Source: Ginglymostoma cirratum
Lineage: Eukaryota
Assembly (NCBI GenBank): GCA_024137785.1
Contig: JAHRHZ010000013.1
Coordinates: 18,701,010 to 18,765,009 of the forward strand
Direction of reading: 5' to 3'
Length of the DNA stretch: 64,000 bases
Numbering within the stretch: position 1 is the stretch's first letter; every line of letters starts with the position of its first letter. A program made the position numbers and the translations under genes. Under the pieces are notes generated by a model. It did no database searches and was not told the DNA's origin. It worked only from the letters and a program-made list of their open reading frames with translations. Shown here piece after piece: positions 19,647 through 55,893 of the stretch.

Positions 19647-19795
19647 CTTGCAGCCTTCACAGGCACTGACTCCATAGTGATAGCCCGATGACTTGTCCTG
19701 ACACACAAAACAAGGTTTGTATACCCGTGGAGGTGGAATTGGAGACGGTGGACTTGGAACAATCTCTTCAGAACTGGTACTCTGTGTTTCAATTG
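19647..19795 (-). CDS. RARB: RARB common exon: proline-rich B region and first C4 zinc finger of the DNA-binding domain
   Basis: Acceptor ttttttcag|CA, donor AAG|GTAAGG, 149 nt. Joins the upstream exon in phase (T|CA = Ser) and reads [49 protein letters not shown], including the P-box start EGCK. Confidence 0.98.
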
Positions 19796-55099: not shown

Positions 55100-55256
55100 A
55101 TTGAGTGCTGTGCCTCTGTTGCCAGTCCCTGTGTGTCAGTCCATTGAAGCATGCAGTCAGAGCCTTCTCTTGCAGCATGCAAGAGGACGGGCTCGGAGTG
55201 TAGAAATCCAGCATTTGCCCAGGGCTGACTGCGAGCACATCCATACAGTCAAACAT
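55100..55256 (-). CDS. RARB: RARB isoform beta2 first coding exon (A region)
   Basis: Minus strand from ATG at 55256 reads [52 protein letters not shown]+T, the RARbeta2-type N-terminus. It is 157 nt and ends phase 1 at a T|GTAGGT donor (55094-55099). Confidence 0.97.
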
Positions 55257-55305: not shown

Positions 55306-55353
55306 CTAGGTGTGGGCAAATTTGCACAGAAAAAAAGTTGCTCCAACTCCCAT
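55306..55353 (-). CDS. upstream ORF (15 aa) [15 protein letters not shown]
   Basis: ATG at 55353; ends CAC ACC TAG, 49 nt before the main ATG. Confidence 0.6.
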
Positions 55354-55379: not shown

Positions 55380-55451
55380 TTATTTTCTCTGTCCTCCCCT
55401 CTTTTTCTTGGCACGTGAGAACTGCTGGTCTTTTTCCCAGGGCAGAATCAT
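55380..55451 (-). CDS. upstream ORF (23 aa) MILPWEKDQQFSRAKKKRGGQRK*, uORF4-like
   Basis: ATG at 55451, TAA at 55380-55382. Shares MIxxWEKDQQ with the recalled mammalian RARbeta2 uORF4 (MIRGWEKDQQPTCQKRGRV). Confidence 0.72.
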   Translation of the reverse strand: MILPWEKDQQFSRAKKKRGGQRK

Positions 55452-55510
55452 GAATTATGACAGACAAGACAACTAAAAGCCTGTAATTGATCCAAATGAT
55501 CCTTTACCAT
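55448..55510 (-). CDS. upstream ORF (20 aa) MVKDHLDQLQAFSCLVCHNS*
   Basis: ATG at 55510; its TGA overlaps the ATG of the next uORF (ATGA). Confidence 0.7.
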   Translation of the reverse strand: MVKDHLDQLQAFSCLVCHNS

Positions 55511-55569
55511 TTCCCCCTTCCACACAACACCAAACCAACACACACCCCCCCACCCTCAAAAAAAAGTCA

Positions 55570-55800
55570 AGAAGACGGCGCTCAATTTAAAATGAGGAAG
55601 GGTGAAGGGGCGGAGAGGGGAAGTCGAGGTGCCTGCTCTCCAGTTTTAGCAGCTGCCCTTTCGCTGGGAGACTCTGTCGCTCGGGGCTCAGCGGGACCCG
55701 CGGAAATCTCCCGATCCCTGGTACAATTTGCACGAAACAAATCCGCAGCCGCGAGAATAGCTCCGCTCACCCCTCTTGTTTTCCAAAATGGCTCGTCCTG
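55570..55800. promoter_or_regulatory. CpG-rich island-like segment in the P2 first exon
   Basis: Dense CG dinucleotides (e.g. GTCGCTCGGGGCTCAGCGGGACCCGCGG, ATCCGCAGCCGCGAG) against a CpG-depleted background. Confidence 0.7.
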
Positions 55801-55876: not shown

Positions 55877-55893
55877 TGAACTTTCTCTGAACC
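55877..55893 (-). promoter_or_regulatory. betaRARE: DR5 retinoic acid response element of the RARB P2 promoter
   Basis: Minus strand GGTTCA-GAGAA-AGTTCA in the context GGGTAG[GGTTCA...AGTTCA]CTTGCATACATTAGGCAATTCAATC. The classic mammalian element is GGTTCAccgaaAGTTCA. Confidence 0.95.

Follow-up and report, generated by a model that had tools for sequence, protein, structure and literature searches.

A conserved upstream ORF start that doubles as a candidate RARβ4-type splice donor in the RARβ2 first exon of Ginglymostoma cirratum

Mammalian RARβ4 was reportedly described by Nagpal, Zelent and Chambon in 1992 as the product of alternative splicing combined with a CUG start. RARβ-prime is said to have been described by Chen in 2002 as a truncated product made from downstream codons of the β2 and β4 mRNAs. 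Work on cancer and retinoid resistance discusses both RARβ4 and the truncated RARβ-prime. PMC2797528 and PMC5778536 support the statement in an earlier note on this DNA that mammalian RARβ4 arises by alternative splicing of the β2 transcript and starts at a CUG. PMC2797528 ties a short human RefSeq transcript to β4 and cites a size of ~37 kDa, and PMC5778536 gives a RefSeq-annotated non-AUG start for human RARB; truncated RARβ-prime is mentioned in PMC1283145. In mouse, uORFs in RARβ2 regulate its translation, as stated in the abstracts (Zimmer 1994 PMC2200052; Reynolds 1996 PMC2120959), and the abstract of the latter singles out uORFs 2, 4 and 5. Searches for literature on a shark or non-mammalian RARβ4, or on a RARα2 twin of the element, found no paper among sources in which subscription journals are poorly covered. 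RARβ4 splicing and its CUG have been known since 1992, and what is added here is the RARα2 twin, the loss of the GT in a teleost and the reading frame of the ATG that splicing retains.

We analysed a window of 64,000 nucleotides, which is the whole stretch of Ginglymostoma cirratum DNA presented above. The gene that hosts the element is RARB (retinoic acid receptor beta), on the minus strand, and the element lies in the first exon of the RARβ2 transcript that retinoic acid induces. This exon comes with the DR5 promoter element and a uORF-bearing leader, and splicing joins its β2 A region to the shared B/C exon. A pattern scan placed the promoter's DR5, a retinoic acid response element, at 55877-55893 (minus strand, as are all features below), and it has a similar offset in RARα2 and in teleost RARβ2. 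A TATA-like element follows it at 55871-55864 and carries a C where RARα2 and the teleost exon carry a T. The main ATG is at 55256, and the A-region coding part occupies 55100-55256; its 52 codons to 55101 encode 52/52 residues identical to the shark RARβ2 model P0039. The ordinary donor is the GT at 55099-55098, and spliced reads join 55100 to 19795, the first base of the shared acceptor exon (19647-19795, 149 bases, AG at 19797-19796), which encodes the B region and the first zinc finger.

Three upstream ATGs, at 55510, 55451 and 55353, precede the main ATG. The scan of 55876-55511 found no ATG, hence the one at 55510 comes first among those of the RARβ2 leader. It opens uORF1 (55448-55510), which has 20 codons and a stop. 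The second uORF (55380-55451) has 23 codons, and the third has 15 codons (55306-55353). The leader resembles that of mouse RARβ2 in that it is long and has several overlapping uORFs before the main ATG, although there are five uORFs in mouse and three upstream ATGs in the shark. The second shark uORF (55451-55380) is likely the counterpart of mouse uORF4, which encodes an inhibitory peptide.

The ATG of uORF1 (55510-55508) forms the final three exon bases of a candidate β4-type 5' splice site, the GT of which is at 55507-55506 on the minus strand; the earlier note had placed this element correctly. The exon end at 55508 is in phase 1, the same phase as the ordinary exon end at 55100. Splicing from 55508 to 19795 would bring into the receptor frame an open run of 26 codons plus one base (55508-55586), bounded on its upstream side by a TAA at 55589 and containing seven near-cognate codons. 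Among these is the GTG at 55521-55523 (T at -3, G at +4), and the proposal that splicing sets this codon in frame with the receptor also holds. The shark 55508 donor probably corresponds to the mammalian β4 donor. The locus is like mammalian RARβ4 (human RARB NM_016152) in that it has the same gene and first exon, the DR5 promoter and an internal phase-1 donor candidate, whose splicing to the shared acceptor would place a near-cognate codon upstream in the receptor frame; the internal phase-1 GT donor in the β2 leader is present as a sequence feature. The locus is unlike it in that the open run lacks an in-frame CUG. Thus, the shark element has β4-like anatomy but no CUG, its donor use is only a candidate, and we do not class it as a β4 isoform. 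As judged from sequence, it is likely the shark counterpart of the known mammalian element, with use of the donor as a candidate only.

The strength of the near-cognate codons was looked up in a mouse-cell reporter library of non-AUG contexts, in which the RefSeq-annotated CUG of human RARB has a value of 13.9 and the consensus AUG is set at 100 (PMC5778536 and its supplement). According to the same text, the human RARB context drops to 5.64 when CUG is changed to GUG, and G at +4 lifts GUG initiation ~5-fold. The supplement gives values for 7/7 in-frame near-cognate codons of the shark run: 0.6 for 55586, 0.2 for 55559, 0.2 for 55556, 3.9 for 55553, 0.2 for 55541, 0.8 for 55538 and 0.2 for 55523, all of them mouse-cell values for positions -4 to +4 only, in a table from which AUG contexts are absent (3/3 missing). 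The best candidate is the GTG at 55551-55553, which has A at -3 and G at +4. The nearest GUG to the donor (0.2) and the best one (3.9) compare with 13.9 for the human CUG. It had been suggested that the GUG at 55523 replaces the mammalian CUG; this suggestion is not supported by the comparison, and the codon was rejected as the preferred start (0.2 versus 3.9). GTG 55523 is predicted to be nearly inactive as a start, and GTG 55553, which would give an A region of 16 residues instead of 6, is the likelier start and also comes first. The 26 codons of the open run hold no in-frame CTG, the start feature of RARβ4. The closest one that has G at +4, at 55643, is cut off by the TAA at 55589.

When the 108 upstream bases, which are G/T-rich, were shuffled, an in-frame CTG, GTG or ACG with G at +4 occurred this close to the donor in 6% of shuffles and within 25 codons in 31%; for any of the seven near-cognate codons the figures were 43% and 82%. 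The offsets of the near-cognate codons from the donor position are -16 in shark β, -16 in the teleost (an ACG) and -19 in shark α2, and these could be read as conserved. The teleost exon, which bears GC instead of GT, also has an in-frame ACG and GTG just upstream, and their presence is most simply explained by chance, although the offset of the ACG equals that of the shark GTG. The three exon types (shark β2, shark α2 and teleost β2) show poor alignment of the bases before the uORF1 ATG. Therefore, the 6-nt insertion relative to mammals that had been proposed cannot be told from substitutions. None of the 228 fetched RAR proteins carrying the B-region motif (of 246 fetched, with 120 of the 1210 matches of one search covered) has a β4-type end of the A region, a result that is uninformative since mammalian β4 is absent from the set as well.

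These data bear on the reading that the donor is used and that initiation at a near-cognate GUG yields RARβ4 protein with a short A region in the shark, as CUG does in mouse, in which case the protein would more likely start from 55553. The right frame, the 26 open codons, the G at +4 with its ~5-fold effect on GUG (PMC5778536) and the 3.9 of the 55553 context all speak for it. The 0.2 of the 55523 context, set against 13.9, and the fall of the human context to 5.64 with GUG speak against it, as do the retained ATG and the teleost sequence considered below. We regard this reading as quite unlikely.

The splice at 55508 would remove 408 bases, which include the starts of two uORFs, what remains of uORF1, and the main ATG together with the A region. 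The ATG at 55510, which has G at -3, is on the exon side of the junction and would be kept. This contradicts the idea of a uORF-deleted isoform, since the retained ATG opens a frame that has no stop over the 49 full codons of the 149-base acceptor exon. Under the scanning rules, ribosomes that pass weak GUG and UUG codons would start at ATG 55510, and this start would compete, out of frame, with any GUG-initiated β4 protein. Thus, of the toggle proposed earlier, in which one element switches between uORF repression in β2 and a uORF-free isoform with a near-cognate start, the identity of the gene and exon and the frame arithmetic stand, and the uORF deletion and GTG 55523 as the preferred start do not. 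Past the acceptor, the receptor frame has its first Met at residue 113 of the shark β2 model. Protein models of white shark, whale shark and electric ray begin at the equivalent of Met-113, like the 336-residue mammalian models. In the first in-frame Met at 113 and in the shark models that start there, the locus is like RARβ-prime; the 5' exons of these models are not visible, hence the models are not tied to the 55508 donor.

The candidate donor is plausible by its sequence, yet it is not singled out. It matches 5/9 positions of the donor consensus and has neither G at +5 nor T at +6. Its predicted pairing with U1 is -5.3 kcal/mol (rank 7/43 among GT sites in 55860-55095), and that of the ordinary, used β2 donor is -5.1 kcal/mol (rank 8/43). 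U1 pairing is better at six other GT sites of the exon region, and we rejected donor strength as evidence. The early leader also has GT sites at 55770 and 55817 that match 5 and 6 of the 9 consensus positions, equal to or above the 55507 site.

RNA reads were aligned on the acceptor side. They came from 1/4 runs, of which ~24% was covered; the other three runs yielded no reads, which does not count as a test. Eight reads aligned, and seven of them had loose ends at 19795. The consensus of these ends is 55100-55129, the ordinary β2 end, with an agreement of 0.71. This value fits 5/7 reads (0.714) or a per-letter 4:3 mixture with the β4 end (0.70); a per-letter mixture with the β1 end gives 0.67 at 4:3 and 0.78 at 5:2. 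Accordingly, 2 or 3 of the 7 acceptor reads could have another 5' partner, the candidate 55508 donor among the options. The β1 exon ~203 kb upstream or a possible cassette near 35550-35010 are other candidates that can supply these minority reads. With 7 informative reads, even 0/7 would allow a donor share of up to 35%. We consider the chance of low-level use of the 55508 donor in the shark to be about even.

The GUG-initiated β4 protein discussed above gains from a U1 pairing that equals that of the used donor and from the minority reads at the acceptor, but these reads can come from the β1 coding exon ~203 kb upstream. The same data can be read in the opposite way, namely that the donor is never used in this shark, that the GT is only a valine codon of uORF1, and that its use for β4 splicing came later, in tetrapods or mammals. 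No 55508 junction was identified among the 7 acceptor reads, the site matches 5/9 consensus positions and lacks the G at +5 and T at +6, its +6 base differs from that of RARα2 and, as inferred from read-through models, from those of bamboo shark and gecko, and the teleost has GC. However, the informative reads number seven and come from 1/4 runs, so that 0/7 is compatible with the share given above, and the used donor pairs with U1 no better than this site. That the donor is never used has, in our judgement, a little less than an even chance.

Comparison with other exons showed which part of the element is old. The same genome has a paralogue on contig C56, which is RARα; its first coding exon matches a shark RARα model at 98%. 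A protein search with the α2 A region gave RARβ-type matches of sturgeon and paddlefish only (4 matches, 60%), and the name RARα rests on the first coding exon. No RARγ exon was found in the genome with two queries, and close matches to the shared RAR exon were limited to two, RARβ and RARα; an assembly gap or a limit of the search is possible. The paralogue comparison is thus between two paralogues, RARβ and RARα. The RARα2 exon (L011) has a DR5 element and the same ATG-GT element 282 bases upstream of its ATG, followed by ~30 similar bases. Its uORF1 is 7 codons long. The element of RARα2 lies near 1448300 of contig C56 (G000:C56, minus strand), matches the donor consensus at 6/9 positions and is in phase 1 to its acceptor; an open run of 18 codons with GTG and TTG codons lies upstream of the candidate donor. 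For RARα2, 3/6 in-frame near-cognate codons were looked up in the reporter table and have values of 0.2, 0.6 and 0.3 (supplement of PMC5778536). On its sequence, a β4-like splice form of RARα is possible.

Two of the six fetched comparison loci were used; L016 and L017-L019 were weak matches, likely due to chance, and were dropped. The two that were used (L014 and L015) are teleost-type RARβ2 exons from metagenome assemblies, which are near-identical and were counted as one species. Their uORF1 ATG is at -251, as against -254 in the shark, and 4/8 of the first uORF1 residues are identical to those of the shark, the others being conservative. The ATG is followed by GC instead of GT, and the predicted U1 pairing is -1.5 kcal/mol. 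Thus, where ATG and GT part, which is in a single lineage represented by one teleost species, the ATG has persisted and the GT has not, and the lack of GT there also argues against a GUG-initiated β4 protein. The uORF1 ATG is invariant across all three exon types, the start of the uORF1 peptide is shared by RARα2 and teleost RARβ2, and the next uORF ATG with its flanking bases also aligns in these three. As in mouse-type uORF leaders, upstream ATGs are thus conserved before the main ORF. Chance cannot account for the ATG element in RARα2 together with the ATG in teleost RARβ2, although the donor alone is unremarkable. Given the ATG plus GT in RARα2, the ATG-plus-GT element likely predates the RARα/RARβ duplication.

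In uORF1 codons 2-8, 5/8 variable columns are third positions, an excess that is suggestive but not significant (p = 0.088). Bamboo-shark and gecko models that read through the leader match the window translation from 55500 at 36/44 and 39/82 positions, respectively. This indicates that constraint extends over sequence that β4 splicing would discard. An overlapping second upstream ATG, 7 bases after that of uORF1, is found in RARα2 and is implied in the bamboo-shark and gecko models; in this shark it is AGG (55503-55501), and the same change alters the +6 base of the donor.

It is also conceivable that the block is conserved as a nucleotide element, such as a transcription-factor site near the promoter, an RNA-binding site or a structure, and that uORF1 and the donor are by-products. 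The similarity between RARα2 and RARβ2 continues past the early stop of the 7-codon RARα2 uORF, and the block lies ~370 bases downstream of the DR5 element. On the other hand, in the frame of uORF1, most of the teleost differences leave the residue unchanged or alter it conservatively (4/6 at third positions), and the ATG is invariant in all three exon types. We consider this explanation unlikely.

We favour, with moderate confidence, the interpretation that the element is an old uORF1 start, likely pre-duplication and likely kept for translational control, whose ATG-GT spelling would also serve as a weak donor, likely the equivalent of the mammalian RARβ4 donor. On the β2 mRNA, scanning ribosomes would meet the uORF1 ATG first, and the uORFs would lower the synthesis of the receptor, as they do in mouse. 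Upon use of the donor, the frame opened by the retained ATG would cross the DNA-binding exon outside the receptor frame. Since the in-frame GUG and UUG codons upstream are weak, the spliced mRNA would give little β4-like protein, and its outcome would mostly be an out-of-frame product, decay or a receptor from Met 113 that lacks the first zinc finger. The spliced form would be a damper of β2 output, not a switch to an efficiently made isoform.

This interpretation of an old uORF1 start is supported by the ATG kept beside GC in the teleost, the constraint on the leader, the low reporter values, the uORF regulation in mouse and the consensus of reads at the ordinary donor. It is weakened in that the third-position excess is not significant, the loss of GT is seen in one teleost species only, and the U1 pairing equals that of the used donor. 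The GT is also kept in both shark paralogues, there is room for 2-3 minority reads, and the mouse abstract names uORFs 2, 4 and 5, not uORF1. A bolder, improbable extension is that the first exons of α2 and β2 share a pre-duplication splice switch, in which the uORF1 ATG doubles as a donor and splicing makes a long out-of-frame ORF over the DNA-binding exon, so that the receptor is damped or gives way to a form that lacks the first zinc finger. The CUG of RARβ4 would then be a later in-frame read-out, and sharks would have an undescribed β4-like RARα transcript. The readings given here overlap, and the likelihoods attached to them do not add up to one. From the shark data, the ATG/GT element likely arose before RARα and RARβ split, and conservation seems to act on the uORF and not on the CUG isoform.

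Several other features were observed. The β1 coding exon (L008, G000:C13:18959064-18959240) lies upstream of the β2 exon by ~203 kb, and the α1 coding exon (L009, G000:C56:1511051-1511224) lies upstream of the α2 exon; the two-promoter layout thus holds in both genes. A DR5-like element at 46388-46372 (minus strand) in the first intron is one of seven direct-repeat pattern matches in the window and may be due to chance. The intronic stretch 35550-35008 is 61% similar over 183 codons to an extra exon of a Chiloscyllium punctatum RARβ model; it contains stops here and is perhaps a repeat or a non-coding cassette. The Chiloscyllium punctatum model with this extra exon starts at an out-of-frame ATG, which corresponds to 55152.
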